62,370 nucleotides of DNA from NCBI GenBank assembly GCA_016929555.1, contig JAFGIO010000080.1:1-62370 (forward strand), in the 5' to 3' direction. Of the stretch, positions 378 through 56,963 are shown in pieces. The notes under the pieces were generated by a model, which was given only the letters and a program-made list of their open reading frames with translations, was not told where the DNA came from and searched no databases. Numbering within the stretch: position 1 is the stretch's first letter; every line of letters starts with the position of its first letter. The position numbers were made by a program, and so were the translations under genes. The stretch is from Deltaproteobacteria bacterium. Lineage in GTDB: Bacteria; Desulfobacterota; Syntrophia; Syntrophales; JAFGIO01.

Positions 378-384
378 GGGGAAA

Positions 385-419: not shown

Positions 420-438
420 GATTCAGGGAGGAACAGTT

Positions 439-1650: not shown

Positions 1651-1660
1651 ACAGGAATTC

Positions 1661-2491: not shown

Positions 2492-2501
2492 GTTGTGACT
2501 C

Positions 2502-4412: not shown

Positions 4413-4491
4413 GCAAGATCGTCATATGCTATCGAAACAGAAGGAGTATCTTCGAACAGTGGGTGGCGCCTGATAGAAAGGGTATGTTTTC

Positions 4492-5370: not shown

Positions 5371-5372
5371 CC

Positions 5373-6443: not shown

Positions 6444-6452
6444 GGGTAAACG

Positions 6453-7256: not shown

Positions 7257-7372
7257 CGGAGGACCTGTTAAAGAAATCCACATATTTCCGTTTGGGTTTC
7301 GATGGAGGAGGAAGGTTATATCCTTCGGTGGGCATCCATGGAGATGGCGGAACTTTCGAAAGGAATGGGTCG

Positions 7373-9860: not shown

Positions 9861-11883
9861 AAGCGGAAGCATTATAAAAAAGGGGGCAACAACAAAAAGG
9901 AAGTCCCTGAAATGGGATTTTTTTAGAAAATGGATCTTTGCAGCGGGCTTTGTCCTGTCGCTGCTCACGATCTGTGTCGTTTTTATCGCCTTGCGCTCTT
10001 CGGGCAGTTCCGTTGGTTACCCGGTCTTTCAGAGAATAAAGAACACCTTTTCCTTCGCGGTATTGGGCAATCAGCCACATTTCTATGCCCTCAGGGGCGA
10101 GAAGAACGGGTTGAACCTGGTGATTACGGCAACAGACACGATCGAACTGTCCTACCGGGACGAGTTCGTGATCAAAAGCATCGATTCCGACGACATTTTA
10201 GAACGCGGCATCACTGTGGATTTTGAAGGTTCTGGCCGACGGAATGTCATGAGGCAACTCATAAAAGGCATTGAACTGGTCGATCAGGTTATTGGCCGGA
10301 ATCAGGGGGTACTGCAAACACGGCCGCACGAAACCATGAAGTTGAATGTCAGATATCGCGGTCGACTCATCGCCGCCCTGCCTGTCCACATCCTGATCAC
10401 GCCTCAGGACTGGCTGCGGTATGCGCGCAATGCAGACAATCGCATCAATCGGATAGCATACCTTCGTAGGGCCGCCGACATGAACCGGGAAGACGTATCC
10501 GTCAGGAGAATGCTTGCAGCCCTCTATGTGAAAGAGGCGATGGTGGGCGAAGCGATTGATCTCTATCGGGAAATCCTTCGCCTCAAACCGGATGATACCA
10601 TCGCATTGCGGGAACTTTCGTTGTGTTATATCCAAAAAGGGGACGCTGCCGGCGCCATTAGAATGGCATCGCGGGCACTCAGGACGGATTCTAAGGACCC
10701 GAGGACCTTGAATGCCTTGGCGATGGCCCACGGTATGTCGGGAAACTGGAAATTGGCTGTGGAAAGTTATCGAGCATCTCTGAAGCTGGAACCGAACGAC
10801 GCTACGGCGCAATTCAGGCTGGGAGAAGCCTATGAAAGGATCGGAAATGTAAAGCAGGCCATAGAGACCTACCAATCCGTTCTTACAAAGGAGCCCAATG
10901 CCCTATTCGCTATGATTGCCCTGGCAGACGCCAGCCTGAAAGAAGGCAGCTACGATGAAGCGATCCGATGGTACCGGGAAATCGTCAAGCGTCAGCCATC
11001 CAATGCAGCCGCCTATGCGAACTTGGGCCTGGCCTGTGGGGGGAAAAGACTCAGAAAAGAGGAGATGGAGAATTACAGAATCGCTTTGAAGCTGAATCCC
11101 CGCGATGCCGTGACAAGGTATAACCTTGCCGTTGCTTATGAGAAGGCAAACCAATATCAGAACGCACAGGATGAATATTCGAAGATCTTGCAGCAAAAGC
11201 CAAGTGATTTCGATACTGCCCGCAGACTGGCCGATCTGTATTTTAAAAACAACCGATACGATCAGGCGGTGCGTCTTTACGAAAGAATCGTAAAGAAATC
11301 AAATACAAAGGCATCCATTTATGCAAATATCGGCTATGCCTATGGAGAGTTGAAAAGGTACAGCTCATCGGCAGAGAACTACGAGAAGGCACTTCGCAAC
11401 GGCAACAAGGATCCCAAGCTGCTCTATAATCTTGCCTTTACCTATGGCAAATTGAATCGGCAGAAAGAAGCCATCGGCGTTTATGAAAAATTAGCCGCCG
11501 TCCATCCGACAGTAGAGGTTCTCAACATTCTCGCCCAGCATTACGTTACGGAGAAGCGGTACGAAAAAGCGATCACATCCTACAGAAAGTTGATCGGCCT
11601 CGAACCCCGCAAGGCAATACATCACATAAACCTGGGCCATGTCTACAGCCTGAGGGGGGATGTGGACGATGAAATTGCAGCCTATAAGGAGGCCTTAAAG
11701 CGGGATGCCGAGGATGACGGGGCTTATGCCAGCCTGGGGTACGCCTATGAGAAGAAGGCCCTGTATCAGGAGGCTCTCGAGGCCTATTTGAAAGCCTATG
11801 AATTAAATCCCGAACTGGATAAGGCAGCCCGACGGATAACACGGTTGAAGATCCAGATGCTGGAGCAGAGACACAAAGAATAA
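9853..11883 (+). CDS. membrane-anchored tetratricopeptide-repeat (TPR) protein
   Basis: One N-terminal TM segment, then more than 10 TPR-like 34-aa units with a recurring A..Y...L...P pattern. It overlaps the xerD stop by 8 nt. Confidence 0.85.
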   Translation: MVRSGSIIKKGATTKRKSLKWDFFRKWIFAAGFVLSLLTICVVFIALRSSGSSVGYPVFQRIKNTFSFAVLGNQPHFYALRGEKNGLNLVITATDTIELSYRDEFVIKSIDSDDILERGITVDFEGSGRRNVMRQLIKGIELVDQVIGRNQGVLQTRPHETMKLNVRYRGRLIAALPVHILITPQDWLRYARNADNRINRIAYLRRAADMNREDVSVRRMLAALYVKEAMVGEAIDLYREILRLKPDDTIALRELSLCYIQKGDAAGAIRMASRALRTDSKDPRTLNALAMAHGMSGNWKLAVESYRASLKLEPNDATAQFRLGEAYERIGNVKQAIETYQSVLTKEPNALFAMIALADASLKEGSYDEAIRWYREIVKRQPSNAAAYANLGLACGGKRLRKEEMENYRIALKLNPRDAVTRYNLAVAYEKANQYQNAQDEYSKILQQKPSDFDTARRLADLYFKNNRYDQAVRLYERIVKKSNTKASIYANIGYAYGELKRYSSSAENYEKALRNGNKDPKLLYNLAFTYGKLNRQKEAIGVYEKLAAVHPTVEVLNILAQHYVTEKRYEKAITSYRKLIGLEPRKAIHHINLGHVYSLRGDVDDEIAAYKEALKRDAEDDGAYASLGYAYEKKALYQEALEAYLKAYELNPELDKAARRITRLKIQMLEQRHKE

Positions 11884-17510: not shown

Positions 17511-17975
17511 ATGAAGATTATGGACATGCTGAAGAAGGAATTGATCGTCGAAGACTTGATATCGAAGAACAAACAGGATGTCCTCGCGGAATTGTCAGAG
17601 GTGTTATTGACGGGCAGTGATATAAAACTGGATACGAATGTGCTTGTAAAGGTCCTTTTGGAAAGGGAAAAGCTTGGCAGTACCGGCATCGGTGACGGTA
17701 TTGCCATACCCCATGGGAAAATCGACGGCCTTGCTGACCTGATCGTTGCCTTCGGCAGAAGCATCGAAGGGATTGCCTTCGATGCCATGGACAACCGTCC
17801 TGTTCACATCTTCTTTTTACTCATGGCACCGGAAAATTCAGCAGGCGTTTACCTGAAGACCTTGGCAAAATTGTCGAAAATGCTAAAGGACGTGGAATTC
17901 AGAAAAACCTTGATGGCTGCGAAAACAAAGGATGACCTCTACGATGCAATCGCAAGGAAGGATGAGGTGTGCTAA
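17511..17975 (+). CDS. ptsN: PTS IIA-like nitrogen regulatory protein
   Basis: EIIA-Ntr family with the phospho-His motif GDGIAIPHG. Confidence 0.88.
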   Translation: MKIMDMLKKELIVEDLISKNKQDVLAELSEVLLTGSDIKLDTNVLVKVLLEREKLGSTGIGDGIAIPHGKIDGLADLIVAFGRSIEGIAFDAMDNRPVHIFFLLMAPENSAGVYLKTLAKLSKMLKDVEFRKTLMAAKTKDDLYDAIARKDEVC

Positions 17976-26886: not shown

Positions 26887-28560
26887 CTACTTCTTTTCTG
26901 CTTTTTTCTTTGCGATCTCCTCGTCTCTAAGCACCTTCCGGAGAACCTTGCCGACGGCGGACTGGGGAAGGGCGTTACGGAATTCCACCATTTTCGGAAC
27001 CTTGTATGCGGCAAGTTTCTCCTTGCAGAAGCCGATGATCTCCTCCGGCGTTGCGGTTTCTCCCTCCTTGAGAACGCAAAAGGCCTTCAGGGTCTCACCG
27101 CGGTACTCGTCAGGGATGCCAACGGAGACGGCCGTCTTGAGTTTCGGATGCTGGAAGAGAACCTCATCGATCTCCCTCGGATAGATGTTGAAGCCGCCGG
27201 CGATGAGCATGTCTTTCTTGCGGTCCACGATGAAGATATAGCCGTCCTCGTCGCGGGTGGCGATATCCCCTGTATAGAGCCAGCCGTCCTTGAGCTGCCC
27301 CGCCGTTTCCTCGGGATTGTTCCAGTAGCCCTGCATGACCAAAGGGCTCTTCATGATGATCTCGCCGGGTTCGCCCTGGGGAACCTCTTCCTTTCCTTCC
27401 TGAAGGTCGACGAGGCGCACGTCATTGTCCGGGAAGGGGATGCCGATGCTGCCCGCCTTCTTGAGGCCTAAAATGGGATTGGAGATACCGAGGGAGGTCG
27501 TCTCGCTCATGCCCCAGCCTTCGCTGAAATAGATCCCCATATCCTTGATCTGCTCGATCAGCTCCACAGGCATGGGTGCCGCACCGGAGTTCAGCAGACC
27601 AAGCTTTTTGGCCAGACCGATCTCCGCAGCCTTGGGATGGTTTATGATGGCGGTTATCGCCGTCGGAACGGCCGGGAAGAAGGTGATCTCTTTGAAGTTT
27701 GCCAGCGTATTCATGAGTTCGTCGATCTGGAACCGGGGGATGAGGATCATGGTGGCGCAACTGAACATGGCCCAGTTCATGACAACGATGTTTCCGTAGG
27801 CATGGAAGAAGGGGAGCATGGCCAGAACGGTCCTTCTCTCCGGAGGGGTGAGCGTGATCGTGGGATTGCCCCATAAAGCGCACTGCAGGGTGCCCGTGAC
27901 GACATTGGCATGGGTCAGGATGGCGCCTTTGGGTACGCCCGTCGTCCCGCCGGTGAACAGGATCATGGCAGGGTCGGCCGGCGTGACCTGAACCCGGGGC
28001 CGTTTCGTATCCGTACAGCCGTCCAGCAGCGCGGTGAAGTGGTACCATTCCTTTTCCAATTCAAGGCTCTGCGCGGTGCTCTGACCCATGCCCTCGATGT
28101 AGTCGGTCACCGCCGTCACGATAACGCGGGGAATGTCCACGGCCTTGCAGAGCTGACGGACCGCCGGAAGTACCATGTCGAAGGTGACGAGCGTCGTCAT
28201 GCCCGTGTTCTCGGCGCAGTGCTTCAGTTCCTCGAAGGTATACATGGGGTTCAGATTGACGACGATGGCCCCCAGGTGCATGCAGGCGTAATAGCAGATC
28301 GGATACTGCGGGCAATTGGGGAGATGAAGACCCACGCGGCTCCCCTTCTCGACGCCGATGGACGCAAGGGCATTAGCCATGCGCAGCACACGGAGACGGA
28401 GTTCCCAGAAGGTCATTTCCGTTCCGAAGAAGTTGAAGACCGTCTTGTCGGGATAGGCGTTGGCAGGAATCTGCAGCAGGTCGTGAACCGGTATACGCGG
28501 TACGCGCACGCTTGTCGGGACGTTGTAATCGTAGTGTCGGTGCCAGGGTTTGCTCTCCAT
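26887..28560 (-). CDS. long-chain-fatty-acid-CoA ligase (AMP-binding)
   Basis: FTGGTTGVPKG and GWLYTGD motifs. 557 aa. Confidence 0.92.
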   Translation of the reverse strand: MESKPWHRHYDYNVPTSVRVPRIPVHDLLQIPANAYPDKTVFNFFGTEMTFWELRLRVLRMANALASIGVEKGSRVGLHLPNCPQYPICYYACMHLGAIVVNLNPMYTFEELKHCAENTGMTTLVTFDMVLPAVRQLCKAVDIPRVIVTAVTDYIEGMGQSTAQSLELEKEWYHFTALLDGCTDTKRPRVQVTPADPAMILFTGGTTGVPKGAILTHANVVTGTLQCALWGNPTITLTPPERRTVLAMLPFFHAYGNIVVMNWAMFSCATMILIPRFQIDELMNTLANFKEITFFPAVPTAITAIINHPKAAEIGLAKKLGLLNSGAAPMPVELIEQIKDMGIYFSEGWGMSETTSLGISNPILGLKKAGSIGIPFPDNDVRLVDLQEGKEEVPQGEPGEIIMKSPLVMQGYWNNPEETAGQLKDGWLYTGDIATRDEDGYIFIVDRKKDMLIAGGFNIYPREIDEVLFQHPKLKTAVSVGIPDEYRGETLKAFCVLKEGETATPEEIIGFCKEKLAAYKVPKMVEFRNALPQSAVGKVLRKVLRDEEIAKKKAEKK

Positions 28561-36389: not shown

Positions 36390-36928
36390 CGAGAGATAAT
36401 AATTTATGGTGCTCTTCAGTAGGCCTGTCGCTAAAGAAACTACTATTTAGTATTGATTTTAAAAGGATGCTAATGCAATAATAAGTACCGTGCCGAGATG
36501 TATGAAGCAATAACATGTTGATTTCATGGACTTAATACAGGTCATATGGGCCGAAAGATTTATATATACTTGCAATCGCGACCATCTCGCAATGCCACTC
36601 GACATATTAAGAACATATCATGAGCTTTGTGATGGAACGGGTGTTAAACATACGCTTGGCGACGTGTAGAACGTAGAACCCTTCGCTGCATCCGATCACA
36701 GCACTCAGGGCTGCTCAGGGTGAGATTTACAATGGCGTAAACGCTACGCGTCACGTCATCGGCATTGTGGATCGCCATCCGCTTTCAGTCCAGGCGCGCT
36801 ACGCCGGGCCATCAAGCACCTACAGCGGCCAGCCTTCCTTGCGAGTCAGTCCGACGCTGATCCGCGACGCAGTTCGGTACGGATAAATGGTGAATGAAAA
36901 AACCCAAGGGTTGAGGAGATTGTTATTT

Positions 36929-37807
36929 ATGGATATCCCAAAATTTCATGAAACGTTTGTTCCTATTCTTGAAACACTTGCTGATGGCCAAACGATCCAA
37001 CATAAGGAACTACTCAATATGATCGTGAAAAAGTACTATTCACAATTGCCAAAGGAATTGTTGGAGAAGAAAACGAAAACCGGCGACCTTCTAATCCTCA
37101 ACAGGATAGCCTGGGGGAAGTCATACCTGAAAAAAGCAGGATACATTCACTATCCGCAGAGGGGCGCTGTACAAATAACCCAGAAGGGGAAAGAGGTTAA
37201 TAAAGATAAGGTCAATTTGAAGGATATTATAAGCGAATCAGGCATATTCAATTTCTACAAGGAAGAAAAAGCAAAAGAATTGGAAGATTTGGAAATGAAA
37301 GGATCATCGCCTCAAGACTTGATTGAGACCGGCTTCTCAGCGATTGAAGCTCAAGTAAAAGCCGAACTGCTTGATAAGCTTAAGACCATCGATCCATTCT
37401 ACTTCGAAAGGGTTATCCTCACATTGCTGGGCAAAATGGGCTATGGCGAATCCATCGAAACGTCGAAAACAGGCGATGGTGGAATTGATGGAATAATAAA
37501 CCAGGATAAGTTGGGACTGGAAAAAATCTATATTCAAGCAAAAAGGTATAATGAAAATAAAATCAGAGAAAAAGAAATTCGGAATTTTATAGGAGCCATG
37601 AGTGGCGATACCACAAAAGGCGTATTTGTGACCACCTCTGAATTTGACCAGCAAGCAATCAAAAAAGCCCATGATGCGCACCATACGATTATTCTAATCG
37701 ATGGAAAGAAGTTGGTTGATCTTTTGTATCAATATAGTGTTGGAGTGCAGGTTCAAAATACCTATGAAGTGAAAGCCGTTGATGACAATGTCTTTGAAAC
37801 AAATTGA
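36929..37807 (+). CDS. mrr: Mrr-family type IV (modification-dependent) restriction endonuclease
   Basis: N-terminal winged-helix Mrr_N-like region and a C-terminal catalytic core, DGGIDGI...IYIQAKRY. The gene is AT-rich relative to its flanks. Confidence 0.87.
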   Translation: MDIPKFHETFVPILETLADGQTIQHKELLNMIVKKYYSQLPKELLEKKTKTGDLLILNRIAWGKSYLKKAGYIHYPQRGAVQITQKGKEVNKDKVNLKDIISESGIFNFYKEEKAKELEDLEMKGSSPQDLIETGFSAIEAQVKAELLDKLKTIDPFYFERVILTLLGKMGYGESIETSKTGDGGIDGIINQDKLGLEKIYIQAKRYNENKIREKEIRNFIGAMSGDTTKGVFVTTSEFDQQAIKKAHDAHHTIILIDGKKLVDLLYQYSVGVQVQNTYEVKAVDDNVFETN

Positions 37808-37968
37808 TGAAAAGCACTCTTCCGAGCAATAATTCCACGGTACACGGCAGAATATCAGACTGCTTTCATTCCGTTTACTGGCTTTCGTTCTTTTGTAGGG
37901 TCCGTATTTCGCTTGTCAGGCCGTGCCCGTGAATTCGTCGTTTCAAGAGTAAGCCGATTTCAAAACAT

Positions 37969-38271
37969 ATGGATACTGATGATCTGACAGAAATGACTTA
38001 CGAGATAATCACGCGAGCAGGCGATGTACTTGATGTGTTAAGCAACGAGATTGGGGCGTCTGACTCTGACAAAAAGACGGAAGAAGATTTCCTTCGCGAC
38101 GTTTTGTCTCATCTCCGCAAAATACAAAAACCGAGAGAGTATCTTGATTGGAATTATCTTGATCAGATTGATGTTAGGGTATTCTATAATGAGGTCGCTA
38201 GACTTTTAGCTCATGTGGAAATAATCTCCGACACTCCTTACAGACAGAGAGGTAAGCCGGCATTAAAATGA
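37969..38271 (+). CDS. hypothetical acidic 100-aa protein
   Basis: The only support is an uninterrupted ORF between mrr and the methyltransferase. I recognised no motif and saw no clear RBS. Confidence 0.4.
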   Translation: MDTDDLTEMTYEIITRAGDVLDVLSNEIGASDSDKKTEEDFLRDVLSHLRKIQKPREYLDWNYLDQIDVRVFYNEVARLLAHVEIISDTPYRQRGKPALK

Positions 38272-38394
38272 CATTTTCAAGATGAAAAAGAGCAAGAGGG
38301 GACACGTTTATGGTTGGTTCCGAGTTGGTTCCGGGGACAGGATACATAATGCCGCCCACACTCATGGCCCACTGGTCTGCCTTTGCGTGATAGT

Positions 38395-39303
38395 ATGGAG
38401 ACATCAGTACACAGGCTGATCAACGATGACGAGCGGGAACTTGCATATCTGGATGATGCTTCGGCTCATCTTGTCGTCACATCCCCTCCATACTGGAACC
38501 TGAAACGCTATAACGAAAACCAGGACCAGCTTGGCCATATTCAGGATTATGAAGAGTTTCTTTTCGAACTGGAGAAAGTCTGGAGGCATGTCTACAGAAT
38601 CCTTGTTCCAGGAGGAAGGCTTGTCTGCGTAGTCGGCGATGTCTGCGTCGCAAGGCGGGATTTTGGTCGTCATCTCGTCTTTCCCCTTCATGCCGACATT
38701 TGCGTCATCTGTCGGAGGATCGGCTTCGACAACCTGAATCCCATCATCTGGCACAAGATCGCAAACGCTTCCTACGAGGTCGAAAATGGATCGAAGTTTC
38801 TCGGAAAGCCTTATGAGCCGAACGCCATCATCAAAAACGACATGGAATTCATCTTGATGCAGCGAAAACCGGGCGGCTACCGGAAGCCGAACAATCGGCA
38901 GCGAGATGCCAGCAGGATCGAAAAAAGCTCCTTTGACCGATGGTTTCAGCAGATATGGAACATAACGGGCGCATCTACCAGGCATCACCCGGCCCCATTT
39001 CCCCTGGAACTGGCCAATCGGCTTGTCCGCATGTTTTCATTCACGGAAGACACCGTTCTGGACCCCTTCTGCGGCTCCGGTACCACGATGATCGCCGCAC
39101 TGCGGGCCGGACGCAACAGCATTGGGATTGAGATCGATTCAGAATATTGTCGCCTGGCCGCCCGTTATCTCAAAGCGGAGACGTCCGATCTGTTTACAAA
39201 AGCTGAGCTTCGATTCGAAAGGGCACCAACGGAGACAGCCGCGTTCGTGAAAGAAGATTCCGCCCTGTATGAAGTCAGGCCGTCCAAGAACAAACTCGAA
39301 TAA
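38395..39303 (+). CDS. DNA methyltransferase, N4/N6 beta-class (SPPY catalytic motif)
   Basis: Motif IV, VVTSPPYW, comes before motif I, DPFCGSGTT. That is beta-class order. The ATG at 38395 is preferred over the TTG at 38383. Confidence 0.87.
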   Translation: METSVHRLINDDERELAYLDDASAHLVVTSPPYWNLKRYNENQDQLGHIQDYEEFLFELEKVWRHVYRILVPGGRLVCVVGDVCVARRDFGRHLVFPLHADICVICRRIGFDNLNPIIWHKIANASYEVENGSKFLGKPYEPNAIIKNDMEFILMQRKPGGYRKPNNRQRDASRIEKSSFDRWFQQIWNITGASTRHHPAPFPLELANRLVRMFSFTEDTVLDPFCGSGTTMIAALRAGRNSIGIEIDSEYCRLAARYLKAETSDLFTKAELRFERAPTETAAFVKEDSALYEVRPSKNKLE

Positions 39304-45963: not shown

Positions 45964-47157
45964 ATGGCAAATACGACTTATATCGATGCATTCGATCCCG
46001 AGGGCATAAGCCGCGAGGTTTGCGAAACATGCGGTGTTTGTTTGCAGAAATGTCCCGTTATGAAGATGGAACAGGAGGAATCCCGGGTAGAGATATTCCG
46101 ACTGCTAAATGGTCAGAAAACCGAACGGGTGCTCGATGAATGTACCTTCTGCTTCAATTGCAATGGTTACTGTCCCCAAGGCCTCAGGCCTTATGCGCTT
46201 ATCATGGAGCGTGCAGCGGAGAAGATTCAAACGTCGGGTAGGGGATTCCCGACATATGTGGACTATCTGATGACGGGGAAAACCGATTCATGCGTGTTTT
46301 GGGATGTATATGATGGAGAATCGGAAGGGGAGAAAACGATTCTGGACAAATGGCATTACATTCCCCCAAGAAGCCAAGAGGTGCTTTTCATAGGGTGCAT
46401 GGGGAGAGAGATACCTTACGGTACGGAACACTCACGGGTGTTCGAGGCTCTTCCCAAGTACGCTCCGCGCAATGCCTGCTGCGGGGAACTGGCGTATCGG
46501 TTTGGAGACTATCAGGGTTTCGTTGAGACCGTCGAACGTACGCGTAAAATGCTCGAATGCCTCGATACCAAACGTCTGGTCTGTTACTGCGGTTCCTGTG
46601 CCAATTTCTTGGGAAATATCTGGCCGAATTATCATGGCGTTACACTGCCCTTTGAGATTGTATCCGTATGGGAATGGCTCTGGGAAAAATACCGGAACGG
46701 CGAAATCAAGGTTGAACGGCCAATCGAGCGGAAGGTGGTCCTTAGTGACTCCTGCTATGGCAGTGAACTGGGAGACGGCTTTTTGGATGCTGTCAGGGGC
46801 TTGCACCGCGCGGTGGGAATGGAGGTCGTTGAACTCGAGAATAACCGTTTCGATAATCTGACCTGCGGGATGGCGTCCATCATTCGAAACCATTACGATC
46901 TGGGAGAAGGCTTCAAGGAGTCTCAAAGAAAGATGGGGCAGGTTCTGAACACAGAAGTCGGAGATCTCAGTTGTTATTGTCCAGGATGCTATATACAGCT
47001 TCAAGGTGCTGCCGGGATGTCGAAGATAAAAACCCATTATGCCCTGGAGGAAATTCTCTGGGCCTTTGGGGATGAATACCCTGTTTCACTGAGGGAACGA
47101 GCGGCAAAGCAGACAGAGCTTTTCATAAAAAAGGTGAAGGATTTTTTCAAGGGTTAA
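45964..47157 (+). CDS. (Fe-S)-binding oxidoreductase, HdrD/GlpC-like with CCG-type Cys-rich domains
   Basis: N-terminal CETCGVCLQKCP and CTFCFNCNGYCP. Downstream CCG, CYCGSC and CYCPGC motifs. Confidence 0.8.
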   Translation: MANTTYIDAFDPEGISREVCETCGVCLQKCPVMKMEQEESRVEIFRLLNGQKTERVLDECTFCFNCNGYCPQGLRPYALIMERAAEKIQTSGRGFPTYVDYLMTGKTDSCVFWDVYDGESEGEKTILDKWHYIPPRSQEVLFIGCMGREIPYGTEHSRVFEALPKYAPRNACCGELAYRFGDYQGFVETVERTRKMLECLDTKRLVCYCGSCANFLGNIWPNYHGVTLPFEIVSVWEWLWEKYRNGEIKVERPIERKVVLSDSCYGSELGDGFLDAVRGLHRAVGMEVVELENNRFDNLTCGMASIIRNHYDLGEGFKESQRKMGQVLNTEVGDLSCYCPGCYIQLQGAAGMSKIKTHYALEEILWAFGDEYPVSLRERAAKQTELFIKKVKDFFKG

Positions 47158-47305: not shown

Positions 47306-48040
47306 ATGGCATTAGAAGGAAAGCTGACCAAGGATAAATTCGGTTATTCCATGCCCGTCGATGCGCCGTTGTTTGCAAAGCCACCAATATATTACAAACA
47401 TGCAGAATCGATCACCATCACCTATGAAACCGATCCAGACGCGGCAGTGAGGCTTTTGCCGGAGGGCCTTCTCCTCCCCGAACCGGCGACCGCTATTCTG
47501 GTGTTTGCAAAATACCCTTTCAGCACGTTTGGTCCTTACGAAGAGACGATTCTGCTTATCCCCTGCCTTTTCAATGATGAATTGAAGGTTTATATCGCGC
47601 ACATCATGGTGAACAGCGATATTCCACAAACCGCGGGTCGGGAAATCTGGGGTTATCCAAAAAAACTCGCCACCATCACCTTTCATAAGGAATATGATCT
47701 GATATTCGCGAAAATGGAAAGACCAGAAGGAAACACGATCTGTTCCGCAGGCATCAGGCCCGAGACGCCTTCCGAGGATATGATGGGCGGCGTCGGTATT
47801 TTGGGTTTGAGGGTCATCCCCAATCCGGAAAAGGAGGCACCGCCCTCCCTTGCGGAATTGATTGAAATACCGCAAGTGGGTACGGTTCACGAATCATGGT
47901 CCGGTCCCGGGTGGGCCTTGTTTCACAATGCGTCGGATTTGGAACCTTGGCATAAGTTAAAGATAAAACAGATTCTTGGTGCAAATTACCGCATCACGGA
48001 TATGGAACTGGGATTTGGCCGGATCATAAAGAGATATTAG
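47306..48040 (+). CDS. acetoacetate decarboxylase (ADC) family protein
   Basis: ATG 6 nt after AGGAGG. 244 aa. The sequence GREIWGYPKK is typical of the ADC-family beta-cone fold. Confidence 0.82.
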   Translation: MALEGKLTKDKFGYSMPVDAPLFAKPPIYYKHAESITITYETDPDAAVRLLPEGLLLPEPATAILVFAKYPFSTFGPYEETILLIPCLFNDELKVYIAHIMVNSDIPQTAGREIWGYPKKLATITFHKEYDLIFAKMERPEGNTICSAGIRPETPSEDMMGGVGILGLRVIPNPEKEAPPSLAELIEIPQVGTVHESWSGPGWALFHNASDLEPWHKLKIKQILGANYRITDMELGFGRIIKRY

Positions 48041-48305: not shown

Positions 48306-49802
48306 ATGTTGCGCACCAGAGAGAAATACCACGAGGATTTGTTCGCGATGAAGCCAAACGTTTATATAGGCGGCAAACGGGTGGGGAGGGACGACCACCG
48401 CTTGAGGCCGGGGATAAATGTTCTGGATCTAACCTTTGATCTGGCCCAGGACCCCAAGTGGAAGGGACTTGCCACTGCCGTTTCGCCCTTGACCGGCGGA
48501 GAGATAAACCGCTGGGCCCACCTTCCCCAGAACTCCCGCGATCTGTTGCAGAAGCAGAAACTCATACGTCTCGCCGCTCGCAGGGTCGGCGGGTGTATCC
48601 AGAGATGCATGGGGCACGACGCCGTGAATGCTCTTGCCGTCTATACCAGAGAAGTGGACGAGAAGAAGGGAACCAGCTATCACCAGCGCTTCCTAGACTG
48701 GCTGCGCGACTACCAAGAACGAGACCTGGATGGATGCTGCGCGCAGACCGACAGCAAGGGCGACAGGATGAAGCGGCCCAGTGAGCAACCGGACCCTGAT
48801 GCCTATGTTCACATCGTGGAGGAGCGCAAGGACGGCATTGTGGTGAGCGGGTTCAAGATGTCCATAACTCAGGTGGCCTATGCTGATGAGATCATTGTCA
48901 TTCCAACGCGTGCCCTTACCGCCGAAGATCGCGATTTCGCCGTTGCCTTCTCACTCCCCGGAGACTGGGAGGGTATCAGCCTTGTGACCCGACCGGTTTG
49001 GCTGCGTGATAAGGACAACCCCGATGCGTCTCCGTTTTGCAGGTACGGTGTGTCCGACTCCGTAGTGGTTTTCGACAACGTTTTCGTTCCGAAAGAGCGG
49101 GTCTTCATGTGCGGGGAGTGGGAGTTCGGGAGGCGACTGGCGCTGCTCTTTGCCGATTCCCACCGTCACAGCTACAGCGGATGCAAACCGGGCGTGTCGG
49201 ACATCTTATGCGGCACCACGGCCCTGGCCGCGGAGGCGAACAACATTCACAAGGTAGCACACGTGCGCGAGAAGCTGTCGCAATATGCGGGGGCGGCAGA
49301 ACTCGCCTATGCTGCCGGCGTGGCAGCAGCAGTCTTCGGCGAGAAGACCTCTAGCGGGGTCTTCTTTCCCAACACCATTTACGCCAATGTCGGACGCAGG
49401 ATGACCGGGGAACTTATCTATCATGAGTACAACCTGCTGACAGAGATAGCCGGCGGCATAGCGGTCACCTTGCCCTTCGAGGAGGATTTTCACGCCGATA
49501 AAACCAGGGACTTGCTGAAACGGTTCATTGTGAGGAACTCCAATATATCCGCCGATGATTCCCTCAAGATATGGAAGTTGGTGGAAAACGTCGGTGCTTC
49601 ACCCATGGCGGCTTGGTACGAGATTGCGGGGGTCCACGGCGGAGGCTCGCCAATCATGGAGACCATTGCCCTAAACTTGGAGTACGACTTTGAATCCAAG
49701 AAGAGCCTCGCACGCTACCTCGCGGGCATCAACCCCGACTATGACGATTTGAAGGATATTGGGAGCGAGCCCGTCTTTTCGGGTGACCTGCTCGGGGGAT
49801 AG
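48306..49802 (+). CDS. abfD: 4-hydroxybutyryl-CoA dehydratase / vinylacetyl-CoA isomerase family (4-HPA hydroxylase fold)
   Basis: C-x3-C (GGCIQRC) plus H-x6-C (HRHSYSGC). This matches the [4Fe-4S] ligand pattern I recall for AbfD. 498 aa. Confidence 0.88.
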   Translation: MLRTREKYHEDLFAMKPNVYIGGKRVGRDDHRLRPGINVLDLTFDLAQDPKWKGLATAVSPLTGGEINRWAHLPQNSRDLLQKQKLIRLAARRVGGCIQRCMGHDAVNALAVYTREVDEKKGTSYHQRFLDWLRDYQERDLDGCCAQTDSKGDRMKRPSEQPDPDAYVHIVEERKDGIVVSGFKMSITQVAYADEIIVIPTRALTAEDRDFAVAFSLPGDWEGISLVTRPVWLRDKDNPDASPFCRYGVSDSVVVFDNVFVPKERVFMCGEWEFGRRLALLFADSHRHSYSGCKPGVSDILCGTTALAAEANNIHKVAHVREKLSQYAGAAELAYAAGVAAAVFGEKTSSGVFFPNTIYANVGRRMTGELIYHEYNLLTEIAGGIAVTLPFEEDFHADKTRDLLKRFIVRNSNISADDSLKIWKLVENVGASPMAAWYEIAGVHGGGSPIMETIALNLEYDFESKKSLARYLAGINPDYDDLKDIGSEPVFSGDLLGG

Positions 49803-49923
49803 GGCTGCGAAGACCGATCGAAAGCCGAACCAAAAAAAACAATGCCGAACCTTTATCCGTACATTTTCCGGTACGGATTCCTATCATAAGTTGTTAAAGC
49901 GAAAGTCTTCTTCAGGAAGGGAG

Positions 49924-50697
49924 ATGGATATGAACTACGAAACCATACTGGTGGAAAAAAAGGACGGTATCGCCGTTATCACGTTGAACCGTCCCGAAAA
50001 GCTGAACGCCGTAAACGGAAAAATGCGCCAGGAAGTGGTGGAGGTACTGGACGATCTCGAAAGAGACGATGCCATACGGGTGGTCATTTTTACCGGAGCA
50101 GGCAGGGGATTCTGTGCCGGTGCCGATATCAGTGAATTCGCCGAGAGTGACAAGGACGCATCGGTTCAAGGCAAAATCAACAAGGGCATGCTGATGATGG
50201 CCCGCCATATCTACGACTTTGAAAAACCGGTTATCGGGGCCATCAATGGCGTATCCGCCGGTGACGGCTCCCAGTGGGCCTTGGCTTTCGATCTCAACAT
50301 TGCCTCGGAAAAAGCTCGATTCGGATGGCCCGCCACAGCCCTGGGTATATTGTGACCGTACGGCATCATCCGACTTCCGGTGGAAGTCGGCCGTTTTCGC
50401 GCCAAGGAAGTGCTCATGACCCGAAGATTTCTCTCCGCTCAGGAGGCGTACGAGTGGGGCATCGTGACCAAGGTGGTTTCTCATGAAATGCTTATGGATG
50501 CGGCCTTTGCGTTGGCGGAGGAGATCAAGAAGATGCCGCCTCTGTCGGTAAAAGCGGTCAAACAGGCGGTTAACATGGGAATGGCTGGATATGAGTATGC
50601 CCAGCAGGTTCTCGGCAATCTGCAAAAATCGCAGGATGCAAAAGAAGGGGCCCGGGCGTTTTTGGAAAAGCGAGAGCCGCGTTTTGAGGGCCGTTAG
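49924..50697 (+). CDS. enoyl-CoA hydratase/isomerase (crotonase) family, reading frame interrupted by one in-frame TGA at 50353-50355
   Basis: ORFs 49759-50355 and 50380-50697 are in the same frame. Joined, they give a 257-codon crotonase: VITLNRPEKLNA, FTGAGRGFCAGADI, then FGWPATALGIL-TGA-PYGIIRLPVEVG. It is either a nonsense pseudogene or a recoded gene. Confidence 0.75.
50370..50390 (+). other. perfect 9-bp hairpin with GGT loop, 14 nt downstream of the in-frame TGA (SECIS-like candidate)
   Basis: CCGACTTCC (50370-78), GGT (50379-81), GGAAGTCGG (50382-90). Confidence 0.4.
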
Positions 50698-51263: not shown

Positions 51264-52898
51264 CTATCTGCCGAAGGGGCACAGGGGAAAGGTGCAAGTC
51301 GGACATTCCAGACAGAAAGCACCGCTACTCATGCGTGCAAGATCATATCGGGATATGGAGAGACCGGCCAGAAGACGGGGAATGAGCAAATCGAAACTCG
51401 TCGTTTCGAAATACAATGCACCGGCGGGAACTCCAATGACCTGAAGGTCACCGATGCGGGCGAGGAGCGTCATCGCCCCCGGCAATATGGGGGCACCGTA
51501 AAGCATGTCCGTCGCTCCCGCGTCTTCAAGTCCTGTGCGGGTGACATCATCCGGATCGACGGAAAGCCCCCCAGTCGTGACGAGGAGATCGATCTTCTCC
51601 TCGATCAGTTCCCCGATCGCTCCGGCAATGGCTTGGCGATCATCGGGGACGACTCGGGAGTGAAAGTCGTGGGATCCCAATCGCTCCAGTTTGCTTCTGA
51701 TCAGGGGAATGAAGCCGTCTTCCACCAATCCTTCGTACACCTCCGTTCCCGTAACGAGAATACCTACCCGTGCCTGACGGAGGGGAAGAACGGTAAACAA
51801 AGGGTTCCCGTTGAGTACCGCCAAAGCCCTGTTGAGATTCAGACGGGAAAGATAGAGGGGAACGGCCCGCGTTCCACCGATTTTATCGTTCGCGGCAACG
51901 AGGGAATAGCTTTGCCGGCTTGCACACATCACATCGGGGATGCAGTTGAAATCGATCAGGCGGTCTTCATCAACTATGAGAAGACCGTCGCGCGCCGCCG
52001 TGAACGTGACCTTTCCTTCCATCGGCTTTTCCGTGAAGGCGATCCCGTCGCCTGCCATGATCCCGCCGAGCCTAAATGCCGCTTCGTCTTCATGAACCCA
52101 CCCGTTTTCGGTTGAATCGACTCCTTTGACGTAAACGGTTTTCTTTCCCATTGCCAGAAGAAGATCAACGTCCGCCTTTTTTACCACTTGGCCTTTCTTG
52201 AATGCAGGGCCCTTCTCGCTTTTAGGAAGGATACGCGTCATATCGTGGAGAAGGGAATGCCCGACGGCGTCCTGAACGGACAAGGCCACCAGTTCCGGTT
52301 TTTTGTCGAACGAATCGCTTTGGAGAGGGGCAACTTCCCTATAGAGATTTGCACCGCCGCAACCACGGCAGATCCCACCGTCCATAGAAGGATAGGCTTC
52401 GCCGCACTGGGGGCAGATGGCGATGCTACCCTTCGACCGTTTTTTCAAAAAGCGGGTCTGCACGCGGAGATTCTGTATTTTGCAAAGTCTTGCGCCGGCC
52501 TCCCTGATCTGGTCGTAAAGGGCATTGGAATCCTGTTCCTTCTTCGGCTTCAGCTTGAAAAACCATTCCCTGATCGCGGGCCAAGGATCGACGGTCGACG
52601 GATGGAGATAGACACGAACGCCCTTTCCCTCGTTCTTTTCATAGAGCGTCACGGCGTATCGACCGACATTTTCGATCCGAAGCCACCCATTTCCCACCGT
52701 GCAGGGTGTGAGGAGCTGTACGGCATCTGGGAGACAGCTTTCCGTTTCACAGATGACATCGAAGAATTCACCGGAAGGTCTGTTGTTCAGCGCCGTATCA
52801 ACCATGATCCCGCCGATGATCATGCCCGGCGCGACGTGGCCGTGGAATTTCTTCACCAGATGAATGTATTCGTCGAAGGAATAGGGACCGATGTTCAT
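51264..52898 (-). CDS. FmdE-domain protein fused to a zinc ribbon and a molybdopterin-binding (MoCF_biosynth/MogA-like) domain
   Basis: FmdE motif FHGHVAPGMIIGG, zinc ribbon CPQCG...CRGCGG, and C-terminal LLVTTGGLSVDPDD. I chose the internal ATG at 52898. Confidence 0.8.
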   Translation of the reverse strand: MNIGPYSFDEYIHLVKKFHGHVAPGMIIGGIMVDTALNNRPSGEFFDVICETESCLPDAVQLLTPCTVGNGWLRIENVGRYAVTLYEKNEGKGVRVYLHPSTVDPWPAIREWFFKLKPKKEQDSNALYDQIREAGARLCKIQNLRVQTRFLKKRSKGSIAICPQCGEAYPSMDGGICRGCGGANLYREVAPLQSDSFDKKPELVALSVQDAVGHSLLHDMTRILPKSEKGPAFKKGQVVKKADVDLLLAMGKKTVYVKGVDSTENGWVHEDEAAFRLGGIMAGDGIAFTEKPMEGKVTFTAARDGLLIVDEDRLIDFNCIPDVMCASRQSYSLVAANDKIGGTRAVPLYLSRLNLNRALAVLNGNPLFTVLPLRQARVGILVTGTEVYEGLVEDGFIPLIRSKLERLGSHDFHSRVVPDDRQAIAGAIGELIEEKIDLLVTTGGLSVDPDDVTRTGLEDAGATDMLYGAPILPGAMTLLARIGDLQVIGVPAGALYFETTSFDLLIPRLLAGLSISRYDLARMSSGAFCLECPTCTFPLCPFGR

Positions 52899-53083
52899 GA
52901 ACGCATTGCCTCCGGGAAATCGTGCGATAAGGAATAGCGGCAGCAACAATAATTCATAATGAACGCCGATGCAAGAGGGATCACAAGAAAATATCACCTA
53001 TAAAATTATGCGATCAACCTCTTCCATGGAATTCCGAGTTTGCTCCCCGACGACAACCTTGCAATTAAGCGCCATGATGTATC

Positions 53084-53512
53084 TTATCCCCATCGACCCT
53101 TTCCACGACCCATGCTTCTGCCACAACGCCTTCCACGTCCATAACCCCTGCCGCGGCCAGGGTTTGCGCGTCTTCCAAATAAATCCAAAATCTGTAGCAG
53201 CAGGCGATCCCTGCTGGCCCATTGCAAGCCCCGTGGTTCCCAAGAAGGACGGGTGGACGGCGGTATTGCCGCTTTTCGCATCGAGGGGACGCGAGCGGCG
53301 GGAAAAGCGGGCGCATTCTGAAGAGATGGTGGGGATTTTGTCTTTGCCATGAAGATGGCATCCTTGGGGCATTCGTCGATGCATGAGCCGCAATCGATGC
53401 AAATTGCCTTATCCACTTTGGCTACCTTGTTGACGGTTATGGCGTCCACGGGACATACTTGGACACATCTTTCACAACCGGTACACTTTCTTTCGTCGAT
53501 TATAACGGCCAT
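53084..53512 (-). CDS. 2x[4Fe-4S] ferredoxin with Pro/Ser linker and Arg/Gly-rich C-terminal tail
   Basis: CTGCERCVQVCP and CIDCGSCIDECP. The tail is GRGRGYGRGRRCGRSMGRGKGRWG. Two other frames are also open across the tail region, so the tail frame is less certain than the ferredoxin domain. Confidence 0.68.
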   Translation of the reverse strand: MAVIIDERKCTGCERCVQVCPVDAITVNKVAKVDKAICIDCGSCIDECPKDAIFMAKTKSPPSLQNAPAFPAARVPSMRKAAIPPSTRPSWEPRGLQWASRDRLLLQILDLFGRRANPGRGRGYGRGRRCGRSMGRGKGRWG

Positions 53513-53614
53513 TATCCTTGATCTTATTCGTTTATTATTCCTATTCAAGATTCGAACTATCCGGGAGAAAGGGACCCGAATATCGATTCCAACATTCTTT
53601 TCGGATTTTCTTGA

Positions 53615-54217
53615 TCAATCATCTTTCTTTGCCGTAAATAGCAAGGGGAAAACGATGTCGCTTGTACAGCAGGGAATCCAGACCGACAGAAATAAGAATA
53701 ATGCAACCCCCGAGACCATGAAAAAGCCAAAGCCCGTTCCCAAGGCTAAGATCATGTGAAATAAGGATGCCCAGGTGCTTAGCAGCACATGCCCGGCGTG
53801 GGGGAATTTCGTCGTCGGCCGCCAGAAGGCGAAAGCAATTCCGGCGAATGACAGTGGATTGACAAGCCACCACTTCTCAATGAAGCCCAGATGAAGACCC
53901 CTATTGGGCATGTTCAAGAGGATTTCTCCGAGATAAGGGATGATGCAATCGCTTAAACTGCCGATGCCAATAGATCCGAAGTACCCAATCGCAAGCGTCG
54001 TCAAAATCTTGCCTTGACCGTGAAGACGGTACATTCCCGCCGTCACCAAGGCACTGAGAAACACGTGTGCGGGATGTAGAATCCAAAACAGAGTTTCGAA
54101 AAAAGATCTTGATAATTGAATGCTCAGGGAAATCCACATGATGAAGATTCCCGTGATCGTTCCAAATAAAGTAAAGGGCGCGTGAGATTTGAGCTCATAG
54201 GATATAATTTTGAACAT
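53615..54217 (-). CDS. six-TM membrane protein with paired His motifs (HPAH, HAGH), unknown function
   Basis: 200 aa, hydrophobic throughout, with a GAAGGA RBS-like sequence 4 nt upstream. Confidence 0.7.
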   Translation of the reverse strand: MFKIISYELKSHAPFTLFGTITGIFIMWISLSIQLSRSFFETLFWILHPAHVFLSALVTAGMYRLHGQGKILTTLAIGYFGSIGIGSLSDCIIPYLGEILLNMPNRGLHLGFIEKWWLVNPLSFAGIAFAFWRPTTKFPHAGHVLLSTWASLFHMILALGTGFGFFMVSGVALFLFLSVWIPCCTSDIVFPLLFTAKKDD

Positions 54218-54291
54218 GGTGTCCTTCAGGTCCGACCGTCGGAAAAATTCGTAAAATATCTTCGCTCATCGGATTGTTGCAACTGGCGCAG

Positions 54292-54930
54292 TTACTTTTC
54301 TTCTCCTTCCAGTTTCTTCAGTCGCTCCGTGATCTGTTCCATCTGTTTCTTCAAGGTCTCGGCCTGTTCTCTCAGTGCAGCAACTTCAGCCTTTTTATCG
54401 GTGGGTTCCGGAGAAGGGCCAAAGGCTTTATCGGTTGCCTGAGCATTTCCGACACCTTGGCCCATAGACATAACGCGACCGGCTCCGCCTCCCATTCCTC
54501 TACCACCGCCCATACCCATTCCGCGTCCCATACCCATACCACGACCCATGCCTCTGCCGCCGCCCATGCCCGTTCCAAAGTGACTCTGGACATTGGGTCC
54601 GGAGGCGCCGGCAATTGAGCCGGATTTGAACATTTGAACCGCATCCCGTGCCGGCCCCGCGACACCGGTGACAACCTGAATTCCAGCAGCACCGAAGATC
54701 TGAAAGGCGTTTGGGCCGCAATTACCTGTCAGAACGACAGAAACGCCCTTATCTGCCATCAGTTGGGCGGATTGAATGCCGGCGCCGCCACCCACGGCTA
54801 TGTTGGGATTTTGAATCGGTTCGAAATCCAAGGTATCCGGGTCGATGATCAAAAAGTAAGCACATCGACCGAAGCGGGGATCGACCGGATCATCAAGCGT
54901 CGGTCCGCTGGAAGTAACGGCGATTTTCAT
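54292..54930 (-). CDS. NifX/NifB-C-like (dinitrogenase Fe-Mo cofactor biosynthesis domain) protein with Met/Gly/Arg repeat and coiled-coil C-terminus
   Basis: N-terminal MKIAVTS....DPRFGRC..F.I.D...........GGGAGIQ.AQLL...GV..V, typical of PF02579-type domains. It is followed by GMGGGRGMGRGMGMGRGMGMGGGRGMGGG and then EVAALREQAETLKKQMEQITERLKKLE. RBS GGAAGGAG. Confidence 0.85.
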   Translation of the reverse strand: MKIAVTSSGPTLDDPVDPRFGRCAYFLIIDPDTLDFEPIQNPNIAVGGGAGIQSAQLMADKGVSVVLTGNCGPNAFQIFGAAGIQVVTGVAGPARDAVQMFKSGSIAGASGPNVQSHFGTGMGGGRGMGRGMGMGRGMGMGGGRGMGGGAGRVMSMGQGVGNAQATDKAFGPSPEPTDKKAEVAALREQAETLKKQMEQITERLKKLEGEEK

Positions 54931-54934
54931 AGTG

Positions 54935-56767
54935 TCATACTCCTTCCTTTAGTTGGGTTTCGAGTTTACTCCAGAGACGGACGATGGATTCGAACGCCGG
55001 CCCCTTCCCGTATTCAAATACCGTTTTGCCCGCCATGAGGGCCTCGTTCACATTACGGTCAAAGGGAATCTCACCAATGACTTTCGCTCCCATCTTCAGG
55101 GCAATCTCCTCAATCCGATGGGTCTGGTCCGCATTGAGATCGGATTTATTTACGACGATAAGCGATGGAATGCCGAAATGATCTGCAAGATCGAGCACGC
55201 GCTGCATGTCATGAACACCTGAGACCGTGGGTTCCGTAACGATAAGGACCAGATCCGCACCGGTGACGGAGGCGATGACGGGACATCCCGTCCCCGGAGG
55301 TCCGTCGCTGAGAATAAGCTCCTTGCCAATATTCTTGGCAAGCTCCGCGGCGACGTTTCGTACCTTGGTCACCAGGCGTCCGGAATTTTCCTCTGCAATG
55401 CCCAGACGGGCGTGAATCATCGGACCGTAGTCCGTGCCCGACACATACCATTTGCCTACGGTGTTCGGTCTGTCCGTCACTGCATCGAAGTCACAGACAT
55501 ACTCGCATACACCGCATCCCTCACAGGAAAATTCATCAATCCGGAAGGTTTCGACTCCCTGGTCGTTTATCGGGCCATCCGTGTGTACAGCCCCAAATCT
55601 ACAGTGGTCCGCACATTGACCGCAGGCAGTGCATTTATTCGGATCGATGGTCATCTTCAATCCCCCGACGAAATCTTGCGCTTCGCGAATGATGGGATTG
55701 AGGAGCAGATGAAGATCCGCGGCGTCCACATCGTTGTCAGCCAAAACCGTGTTATTGGCGAGCATGGCCAAGGAAGCTACCACTGTGGTTTTTCCCGATC
55801 CCCCTTTGCCGCTGATCACGGCGATTTCCTTGAAGACGGGTGATTCTCCGGGTGAGAACGGATCGAGCTTTCCCGTTTCTACGGAAAACGCCTCTTCAGC
55901 TGGCACATCGGGAGGGACAGTGCCGACCAAGGGTAGTATATCGGAAAAGATGTTCAGAAGGTTTTCCCGAAATTCGGGATAAAGATGCGTTAGTATAGTG
56001 CCGCTTGAATATGATTCGGCGTATTCTCGTTTGAACGGAATGCGTCCGGCGATGGGAACACCTACCCGTCCCGCATAATCCGTGATTAAATGATCGGTCC
56101 CATCCGAGCGGTTGATTACGATGCAGGTTGGTATCTTCTTTTTCAAGGTCATGTTGACGGCGAGTTTGAGATCGTTCAGACCGAATGGCGTCGGTTCCGT
56201 CACCAAGACAGCCACATCCGCGTTGTCTACAGTCTCGACGACGGGACAGGACGTTCCAGGTGATGCATCAATGATATTGATCGCTGCAGGATCGACGAGG
56301 GACTTCACCCTTCGAATGACGGCAGGGGCCATTGCTTCGCCGATGTTCAACGTTCCATGCGCAAAAAAGAAAGGTTGATTTCGTGAAGATATCTCAACAG
56401 TGCCGACAGGAGAGGGTTTATCGCTTAGCGCCCCTTCCGGGCAAACCAGGGAACAAAGCCCGCAGGCGTGACATAGCTCGTTGAAAATCAACACCTTTCC
56501 CTTTACCACGGCAATGGCGTTGTATCGGCATGCCTCCGCGCAATCGCCGCAACCGGTGCATAAGTCTTCGTTCCAGGCAGGCCTCAACACCTCCACGGTT
56601 TTTTGTTTATCGAACTTCGGTTGAACAAACAGATAGTCGTTGGGCTCTTCCACGTCACAGTCCAACAACCTGATGTTTTCGCCGCGATCGGCGAGGGCAT
56701 AGGCCAAGTTGACGCAAAACGTCGTCTTACCCGTTCCGCCCTTGCCGCTGGCAACCGCGATAATCAT
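54935..56767 (-). CDS. tandem fusion of two MinD/ParA-type P-loop ATPases, each with an inserted 2x[4Fe-4S] ferredoxin domain
   Basis: Two deviant Walker A motifs, ASGKGGTGKTT and ISGKGGSGKTT. Four CxxCxxCxxxC(P) motifs. I chose the ATG at 56767. Confidence 0.88.
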   Translation of the reverse strand: MIIAVASGKGGTGKTTFCVNLAYALADRGENIRLLDCDVEEPNDYLFVQPKFDKQKTVEVLRPAWNEDLCTGCGDCAEACRYNAIAVVKGKVLIFNELCHACGLCSLVCPEGALSDKPSPVGTVEISSRNQPFFFAHGTLNIGEAMAPAVIRRVKSLVDPAAINIIDASPGTSCPVVETVDNADVAVLVTEPTPFGLNDLKLAVNMTLKKKIPTCIVINRSDGTDHLITDYAGRVGVPIAGRIPFKREYAESYSSGTILTHLYPEFRENLLNIFSDILPLVGTVPPDVPAEEAFSVETGKLDPFSPGESPVFKEIAVISGKGGSGKTTVVASLAMLANNTVLADNDVDAADLHLLLNPIIREAQDFVGGLKMTIDPNKCTACGQCADHCRFGAVHTDGPINDQGVETFRIDEFSCEGCGVCEYVCDFDAVTDRPNTVGKWYVSGTDYGPMIHARLGIAEENSGRLVTKVRNVAAELAKNIGKELILSDGPPGTGCPVIASVTGADLVLIVTEPTVSGVHDMQRVLDLADHFGIPSLIVVNKSDLNADQTHRIEEIALKMGAKVIGEIPFDRNVNEALMAGKTVFEYGKGPAFESIVRLWSKLETQLKEGV

Positions 56768-56963
56768 TTGTCTCCGCAATCCTTTCTGTCGATATTCCAC
56801 AAAATCAACGAAAACTCCGTGCGGTCCAATTCACCCAGAGAAGGGGTTGATTTTTTCACCAAAACAACGAATTCTCCGCGGCAGCTGCGAGGATTGAATC
56901 CCTTTATCGCACACCGCGGTAGCTTCAGTGAGATTCGGTCATCGTGGGCGACCGTATGATGCA

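Follow-up and report, generated by a model that had tools for sequence, protein, structure and literature searches.

The stretch of DNA analyzed here (the window) is contig JAFGIO010000080.1 of the Deltaproteobacteria bacterium assembly GCA_016929555.1 (62,370 nucleotides), and our analysis concerned a crotonase-fold gene on its forward strand, the reading frame of which contains a TGA at positions 50353-50355. The encoded protein belongs to Pfam family PF00378 (ECH_1) and the peptide around the stop reads LGIL-TGA-PYGIIRLPVEVG. In a preliminary description of this DNA, two crotonase open reading frames (ORFs) had been proposed to be parts of one frame separated only by this codon, and this was confirmed: both ORFs are in the same frame, which ends at a TAG (50695-50697), and the ECH_1 profile spans the TGA (residues 11-256, profile positions 1-250/251, E = 2.3e-60). 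The Pfam matches of the crotonase protein were limited to PF00378 and PF16113, and the frame is colinear with full-length homologues that carry cysteine (Cys) instead of the TGA. Gene callers split the gene into an N-terminal ORF of 141 amino acids and a C-terminal ORF of 93-105 amino acids. In all public records seen, the gene is mis-annotated as two such fragments, which are named 'enoyl-CoA hydratase/isomerase family protein' (141 amino acids) and 'hypothetical protein' (105 amino acids) by NCBI/JGI. The N-terminal ORF had been described to begin at position 49924, but the probable start is the ATG at 49930, since the homologues begin with M-x-Y-x-T and this pattern is matched by MNYETIL... 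from 49930 and not from 49924. A ribosome-binding site (GGAAGGGAG) precedes this ATG.

The TGA had been reported to be the only in-frame stop of this kind, and among the 44 Pfam-supported ORFs of the window an internal TGA indeed occurs in a single one, the crotonase. When the window was scanned for other TGA-split genes, no credible one was detected. TGA is also the normal stop codon of 16 of these 44 ORFs. These data bear on the possibility that the organism reads TGA as Trp or Gly under an alternative genetic code, an explanation that has nothing in its favor beyond the in-frame TGA itself. We excluded this scenario on the grounds that TGA terminates the 16 ORFs mentioned above, that no other internal TGA is present and that the residue at the corresponding position of the homologues is Cys rather than Trp or Gly. 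Its probability is negligible.

To explore the conservation of the TGA, we searched 5.8 billion proteins for homologues. This search returned about 65 full-length homologues with 58-69% identity and about 26 more protein clusters (formed at 90% identity) of 141-147 residues, which cover the N-terminal 55% of the query and all end with ...LGIL. At the DNA level, we read 15 distinct loci with the TGA. They comprise the window, 11 species-representative genomes (L001-L011; one Acidobacteriota metagenome-assembled genome (MAG) and 10 MAGs of Syntrophales/Syntrophaceae/Syntrophobacterales type, one of which is labelled only Deltaproteobacteria), a metagenome locus (L029), a Clostridia MAG (L121-123) and L124/125. 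When metagenomes were scanned with the family alignment, generic crotonase patterns were picked and a single relevant locus (L029) was retrieved along with 79 unrelated hydratases; the DNA of the Cys forms was obtained through exact protein look-ups. Here, we found the TGA at the identical codon in all 15 loci, followed by a C and then by an intact, conserved frame up to a normal stop. The TGA forms are spread over at least three phyla and share 64-95% protein identity. The preliminary description had suggested inspecting this codon in other genomes and asking whether the aligned residue of orthologues is Cys or rather Trp, Gly or Arg. The answer was Cys in 30/30 sampled full-length homologues, which are 57-69% identical to the window protein (LGILCPYGIIRLP), and in the eight Cys-form genes read at the DNA level the codon was TGC or TGT (8/8). 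Crotonases with less than about 48% identity mostly carry the canonical proline of the PGxGG loop at this position.

A single base change converts TGC or TGT into TGA and the window represents one assembly, so that a pseudogene (nonsense mutation of TGC, TGT or TGG) or a sequencing or assembly error in one contig might in principle explain the interrupted frame. However, the same TGA was found in assemblies that were obtained independently from many samples, and downstream of it the frame contained neither additional stops nor frameshifts. Because it recurs at the same codon with an intact downstream frame, neither an isolated nonsense mutation nor a sequencing error can account for it, and the overall probability of a pseudogene or artefact is minimal.

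The codons between the TGA and the earliest conserved in-frame start downstream (a Met codon at +21) are informative for another scenario. In the Sec forms (selenocysteine, Sec; we use this term for the genes with the TGA), 16 of the 20 codon columns 3' of the TGA vary, and an amino-acid change was seen in only two of them. Since these codons vary at synonymous sites with almost no amino-acid change, we concluded that codons +1 to +20 are translated. A conserved split gene would involve termination of a 141-residue N-terminal part at the TGA and separate initiation of the C-terminal part, for instance at the ATG at +21, with both parts assembling into a crotonase fold. The annotation of two ORFs by the gene callers everywhere fits this model, and so do the conserved Met codon and the purine-rich AAGGAA/AAGAGG just 5' of it. 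If initiation took place at +21, however, the 20 preceding codons would remain untranslated and free to drift, but they show strong purifying selection at the protein level and align without gaps to the Cys homologues. Moreover, the stop is always TGA and never TAA or TAG in the 15 loci, the homologues carry their Cys exactly at this position, and the GTG in the hairpin loop of the window (see below) is not conserved as a start. According to the structural model discussed later on, the break would also cut the active-site loop of a single domain. We therefore consider a split gene very improbable.

Downstream of the TGA, there is a candidate bacterial selenocysteine insertion sequence (SECIS), the parts of which are listed in Table 1. 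The perfect 9-bp stem, the GGT loop, the spacing of 14 nt between TGA and stem and the distance of 26 nt from the U of the UGA to the first G of the loop had all been noted before and were recovered in the sequence; from the UGA to the loop, there are 23 nt. The minimum free energy (MFE) was -13.6 kcal/mol for the upper hairpin (z = -4.0 for its own composition) and -16.8 kcal/mol for the whole element. The limits for bacterial SECIS elements, as quoted in PMC13188914 from Zhang & Gladyshev (2005), are a loop of 3-9 nt, a stem of 4-16 bp, a spacing of 16-37 nt and an MFE of -7.5 kcal/mol or lower. The window hairpin, which carries G at loop positions 1 and 2, falls within all of these published limits. 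In the preliminary description, less than one hairpin of this type was expected by chance. This expectation stood (0.38 in Markov-1 simulations of the window, with one observed), but the hairpin is not remarkable on its own: for hairpins of at least 9 bp with loops of 3-9 nt, we counted 7 hits (5 distinct) versus about 2.5 expected in the window simulation. The significance of the hairpin lies in its position and in its conservation across genomes, not in its chance rarity. Four other perfect hairpins of at least 9 bp, with loops of 5-9 nt, are located at window positions 251-408, 11274-11296 and 17761-17785 and may be terminators or regulatory elements.

When the hairpin regions of 13 Sec forms were aligned, all of them (13/13) had loops of the type GGN or CGGGN (3 nt, in some cases 5 nt) and 7-9 of the 9 upper-stem pairs, and the upper stem was 93% paired. 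Over codons +6 to +14, the third-position entropy of the Sec forms was 0.59 compared with a gene mean of 1.17, which is the lowest value of the gene (rank 1/248). In the Cys forms, the same codons had an entropy of 1.44 (rank 228/248). Leu was encoded by CTT, Pro by CCG and Glu by GAA in 12/12 Sec-form genes, and Val by GTC in 11/12. These hairpin codons vary in the Cys forms, where the loop G is often lost because Ser or Pro is encoded at the loop position. A direct comparison is offered by the syntenic orthologues L121 (TGA) and L109 (TGC), which are 88% identical at the protein level and share an identical local peptide: the hairpin amounts to -9.3 kcal/mol in the former versus 0 kcal/mol in the latter. 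It had been considered before that the hairpin might be dictated merely by the conserved RLPxEVG peptide. This proved not to be the case, since Cys genes with the same peptide lose the hairpin by synonymous changes. Taken together, these sequence comparisons indicate that the hairpin is under an RNA-level constraint tied to the TGA.

The genes of the E. coli fdhF type, with an intragenic SECIS, share several properties with the gene described here: an in-frame UGA, a stem-loop in the coding region with G(G/U) at the loop start, Cys orthologues and an occurrence in selenoprotein-rich anaerobes. They differ in their protein, since in our case the host is a crotonase (ECH_1) with the motif G-I-L-U-P-Y-G and without a thioredoxin-like or metal-binding redox motif. 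As to the decoding capacity of the source organism, neither a tRNA (ARAGORN) nor an Rfam match at the gathering threshold was found in the window. We know of no bacterial SECIS model in Rfam, so that this null result is uninformative with respect to the SECIS. Because the window does not contain the Sec machinery, we infer the decoding capacity from the taxonomy and from a neighboring selenoprotein gene. LepA places the window in the Syntrophales near the Smithellaceae (84-86% identity), and 16 and 39 selenoprotein genes have been counted in Syntrophus aciditrophicus and Syntrophobacter fumaroxidans, respectively (Peng et al., 2016). On three of the related loci (L003, L004, L007), we detected a gene for a CoA-disulfide-reductase-like (CoADR-like) flavoprotein of 445-447 residues with a TGA at the redox-Cys (DFVSYAA-U-PMPYY). 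Its best NCBIfam matches were NF007123 and TIGR03385 (E = 1e-110 to 1e-114, under the equivalog cut-offs), and a CoA-disulfide-reductase-like selenoprotein is an already catalogued family (PMC13188914; Peng et al. family table).

The UGA might also be decoded as Cys in a SECIS- and SelB-dependent manner, either by a tRNA-Sec-like tRNA charged with Cys or by Cys-tRNA(Sec) under selenium scarcity, and this would result in a full-length enzyme with Cys. The conserved TGA, the hairpin and the Cys orthologues would be explained equally well by this mechanism. Cys-charged tRNA-Sec-like tRNAs have been reported from a restricted set of lineages, and the Syntrophales lineage has classical selenoproteomes, with a recognized selenoprotein family encoded on related contigs. 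In addition, the occurrence of TGA forms in at least three phyla is explained more simply by standard Sec decoding. Natural Cys-decoding systems of this kind were reportedly described by Mukai et al. in 2016 and Vargas-Rodriguez et al. in 2018, both of which are cited in PMC8762117. For the gene described here, Cys insertion appears improbable.

We conclude that the gene is a selenoprotein gene, the TGA of which is read as Sec, and we assign a probability of about 0.88 to this reading. The preliminary description had set Sec recoding against a nonsense mutation or an error, and all of its points that could be tested spoke for recoding. There are, however, observations that weigh against this conclusion. 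The co-variation check of the hairpin suggested earlier was negative: in the aligned forms, there were no two-sided compensatory changes of the stem but only conservation and one-sided transitions that keep wobble pairs. The peptide R-L-P-x-E-V-G favors partial self-complementarity, and 2-3 of the Cys forms retain 7-8 of the 9 pairs. In one Sec form (L009), the 21-nt core hairpin amounts to only -6.5 kcal/mol without the lower stem. Moreover, selA, selB, selD and tRNA-Sec were all absent from the 62-kb window, and the protein has neither a CxxU/UxxC redox motif nor a thioredoxin fold, which sets it apart from most selenoproteins. If the TGA is read as Sec, the ribosome would reach the UGA at 50353 and the mRNA hairpin starting 14 nt 3' of it would act as bacterial SECIS. 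With its GGU loop, the hairpin would recruit the SelB-GTP-Sec-tRNA(Sec) complex, which would out-compete release factor 2 (RF2) at the weak UGA-C stop. Sec would be inserted and translation would run on to the TAG at 50695-50697. The predicted product is a crotonase-fold protein of 255 residues with Sec142 in the active-site loop, directly before the N-terminus of a helix. SelB and tRNA-Sec are presumably encoded in the source genome, and selenium should actually be incorporated into the protein. The recoding mechanism itself is the standard bacterial one; what is new is the protein family.

To obtain information on the surroundings of residue 142, we inspected an AlphaFold model of a full-length Cys homologue (P0001). 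In this model (predicted local distance difference test (pLDDT) 89.8, predicted template modeling score (pTM) 0.88), the protein forms one continuous domain and residue 142 is located in a turn directly before helix 143-153. The pKa of a thiol or selenol is lowered when it is positioned before a helix N-terminus. Crotonases of the PDB match the protein at E = 1e-60, and the earlier proposal that the TGA occupies a real residue position in the active-site loop was supported by the alignment, in which it corresponds to the Pro of the canonical PGxGG loop. When we compared the protein with canonical hydratases and 3-hydroxypropionyl-CoA dehydratase (5zai, 5xzd, 2pbp, 1dub), fold and length were the same, the family-profile E-values ranged from 1e-59 to 1e-62, and the oxyanion-hole segments FCAGAD and GAINGxxxGxG and the C-terminal EGxxAFxEKRxPxF motif were kept. 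In contrast, GGG-x-E is replaced by GDGSQ and P-E by P-A, and one residue is missing from the PGxGG loop, where Sec/Cys takes the place of Pro. In the alignment with 5zai, 5xzd and 2pbp, both catalytic glutamates (the equivalents of rat Glu144 and Glu164) are thus replaced, one by Gln and one by Ala. Gln115 is near-invariant in the subfamily; Ala135 is invariant in alignment A2 and near-invariant in the wider alignment A4. Judged by these residues, the protein would not be an enoyl-CoA hydratase in the strict sense, and an ordinary hydratase role is unlikely.

Since both hydratase glutamates are lost, Sec/Cys142 is probably catalytic. In this role, Sec (Cys in many relatives) would act on an acyl-CoA substrate, and it could do so as nucleophile or as redox-active group. 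Covalent catalysis from the active-site loop has a precedent in 4-chlorobenzoyl-CoA dehalogenase (1NZY), a crotonase-fold enzyme in which a nucleophilic loop residue, Asp145, takes over from the Glu pair. In the profile alignment (99.8% probability), Asp145 and the Sec share a loop and are 1-3 residues apart, according to where the gaps are set, and Trp137 of 1NZY aligns with the conserved Trp133 of our family. The alignment is gapped and ambiguous at this point: with hhalign, Asp145 pairs with Leu141 and a gap of two residues precedes Cys/Sec142, and in a G-anchored ungapped reading Asp145 is opposite Pro143. The two systems differ in that the nucleophile is Asp in one case and would be Sec/Cys in the other, and no halo-aromatic context was seen here. 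A search of the literature for residue-level comparisons within the crotonase superfamily gave no result. It is conceivable, although we regard it as rather doubtful, that the crotonase superfamily has its first selenoenzyme here: in a clade without the Glu/Glu acid-base pair, a selenolate (a thiolate in the Cys forms) located before a helix in the active-site loop would work as covalent nucleophile or redox center on acyl-CoA, in some lineages together with an adjacent CoADR-like flavoprotein that changes between Sec and Cys along with it.

Table 1. Features of the crotonase locus and of related loci (positions refer to the window unless a locus is given)
Feature	Position	Strand	Remarks
Shine-Dalgarno-like sequence GGAAGGGAG	49915..49923	+	6 nt 5' of ATG 49930
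Putative selenoprotein gene, complete	49930..50697	+	255 codons, crotonase-fold (ECH_1), Sec = residue 142
Putative Sec-UGA codon	50353..50355	+	next base C (UGA-C), likewise in 15/15 distinct Sec-form loci
Candidate bacterial SECIS	50360..50395	+	lower stem, 5' bulge, upper stem, apical loop GGU
Lower stem ACGGC / GCCGU	50360-50364 / 50391-50395	+	
5' bulge	50365-50369 or 50370	+	
Upper stem, perfect 9 bp, CCGACTTCC / GGAAGTCGG	50370-50378 / 50382-50390	+	RNA: CCGACUUCC/GGAAGUCGG
Apical loop GGT (GGU)	50379-50381	+	
GlpC/CCG-like Cys-rich Fe-S protein	45964-47157	+	
Acetoacetate-decarboxylase-family (ADC-like) protein	47306-48040	+	
HpaB/AbfD-family protein	48306-49802	+	4-hydroxybutyryl-CoA dehydratase type
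Sec-CoADR-like genes	L004:1419-2753, L007:10632-11966, L003:16892-18232	-	Syntrophaceae loci with Sec-crotonase
Cys-CoADR genes (...SYGSCGLPYF...)	L115:6537-7949, L116:2093-3505	+	Dehalococcoidia, immediately 3' of Cys-crotonase

The only recurrent neighbor of the crotonase was the CoADR-like gene. Its Sec form directly adjoins the crotonase in L004 and L007, and where the two genes are neighbors, which applies to a minority of loci, the Sec or Cys state of the CoADR-like gene matches that of the crotonase. This match may reflect a functional link. On the reverse strand of another Sec-form locus (L008), a TGA near position 4338 splits a frame into 85 and 501 amino acids (...KPAESKGEG-U-GGAVAPLEPYEKV...); this may be another selenoprotein gene or a chance juxtaposition. 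In the window, three genes upstream of the crotonase are co-oriented with it and possibly form an operon (the GlpC/CCG-like, ADC-like and HpaB/AbfD-like genes of Table 1). None of the other Sec and Cys loci that we inspected has this arrangement or carries the ADC-like and AbfD/HpaB-like genes beside the crotonase, and these neighbors provide no general functional clue. At the other loci, the crotonase is accompanied either by acyl-CoA dehydrogenases, short-chain dehydrogenases/reductases (SDRs), CoA ligases and thiolases (L111, L124) or by unrelated genes.

Several additional features of the window should be mentioned. Downstream of the crotonase, on the reverse strand (51264-56800), there is a cofactor/Fe-S cluster, which includes a 577-amino-acid fusion of FmdE, zinc-finger and MoCF_biosynth domains, a 2x[4Fe-4S] ferredoxin, a Nitro_FeMo-Co/DUF5320 protein and a 621-amino-acid double CbiA/ParA-type ATPase with ferredoxin inserts. 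L005 likewise carries Nitro_FeMo-Co/DUF5320 and CbiA/ParA-type ATPase genes close to its Sec-crotonase, together with distant homologues of the TrmO-like and CCG-like genes of the window. An Mrr-family restriction endonuclease (Mrr_N and Mrr_cat) followed by an N6/N4 DNA methyltransferase (36887-39303, forward strand) resembles a restriction-modification pair. Three AMP-binding genes of the acyl-CoA-ligase type are located at 2502-4412, 7247-8629 and 26887-28560, two of them inside an ABC transporter cluster of the branched-chain-amino-acid type (313-7256). The presence of three such ligase-type genes fits an organism specialized in the activation of organic acids.

To our knowledge, nearly all known prokaryotic selenoproteins are either thiol-type oxidoreductases or metal-center enzymes. 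When we compared our protein with NCBIfam (release 20), no model was matched at its cut-off and no selenoprotein model was available for it. An ECH_1 selenoprotein is not listed among the 119 prokaryotic selenoprotein families of the 2026 inventory (PMC13188914), and crotonase is absent from the family table of Peng et al. In the full-text literature, our searches did not reveal any description of a crotonase or enoyl-CoA hydratase with Sec. There is a catalogued selenoprotein family named 'crotonase' (KAA1296466.1, MDP6049977.1), the defining features of which are a DsbA-like domain (PF01323) and the motif D-x-x-U-P. In contrast, the window protein lacks PF01323 and carries G-I-L-U-P, with an invariant Gly instead of Asp at position -3, and PRK06023 was not among its top 25 NCBIfam matches; the two families were set apart by the description of the catalogued one and not by a sequence alignment. 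The gene very probably encodes a crotonase-superfamily selenoprotein that is uncatalogued, widespread and systematically mis-annotated and has an unusual active site. Owing to the mis-annotation, the gene is missing from selenoproteome counts and from metabolic reconstructions of anaerobes, including syntrophic bacteria. The natural pairs of Sec and Cys orthologues, some of which are syntenic and 88% identical, provide material to test what Sec adds. If our conclusion holds true, both the chemistry ascribed to selenocysteine and that ascribed to the crotonase superfamily would be widened.

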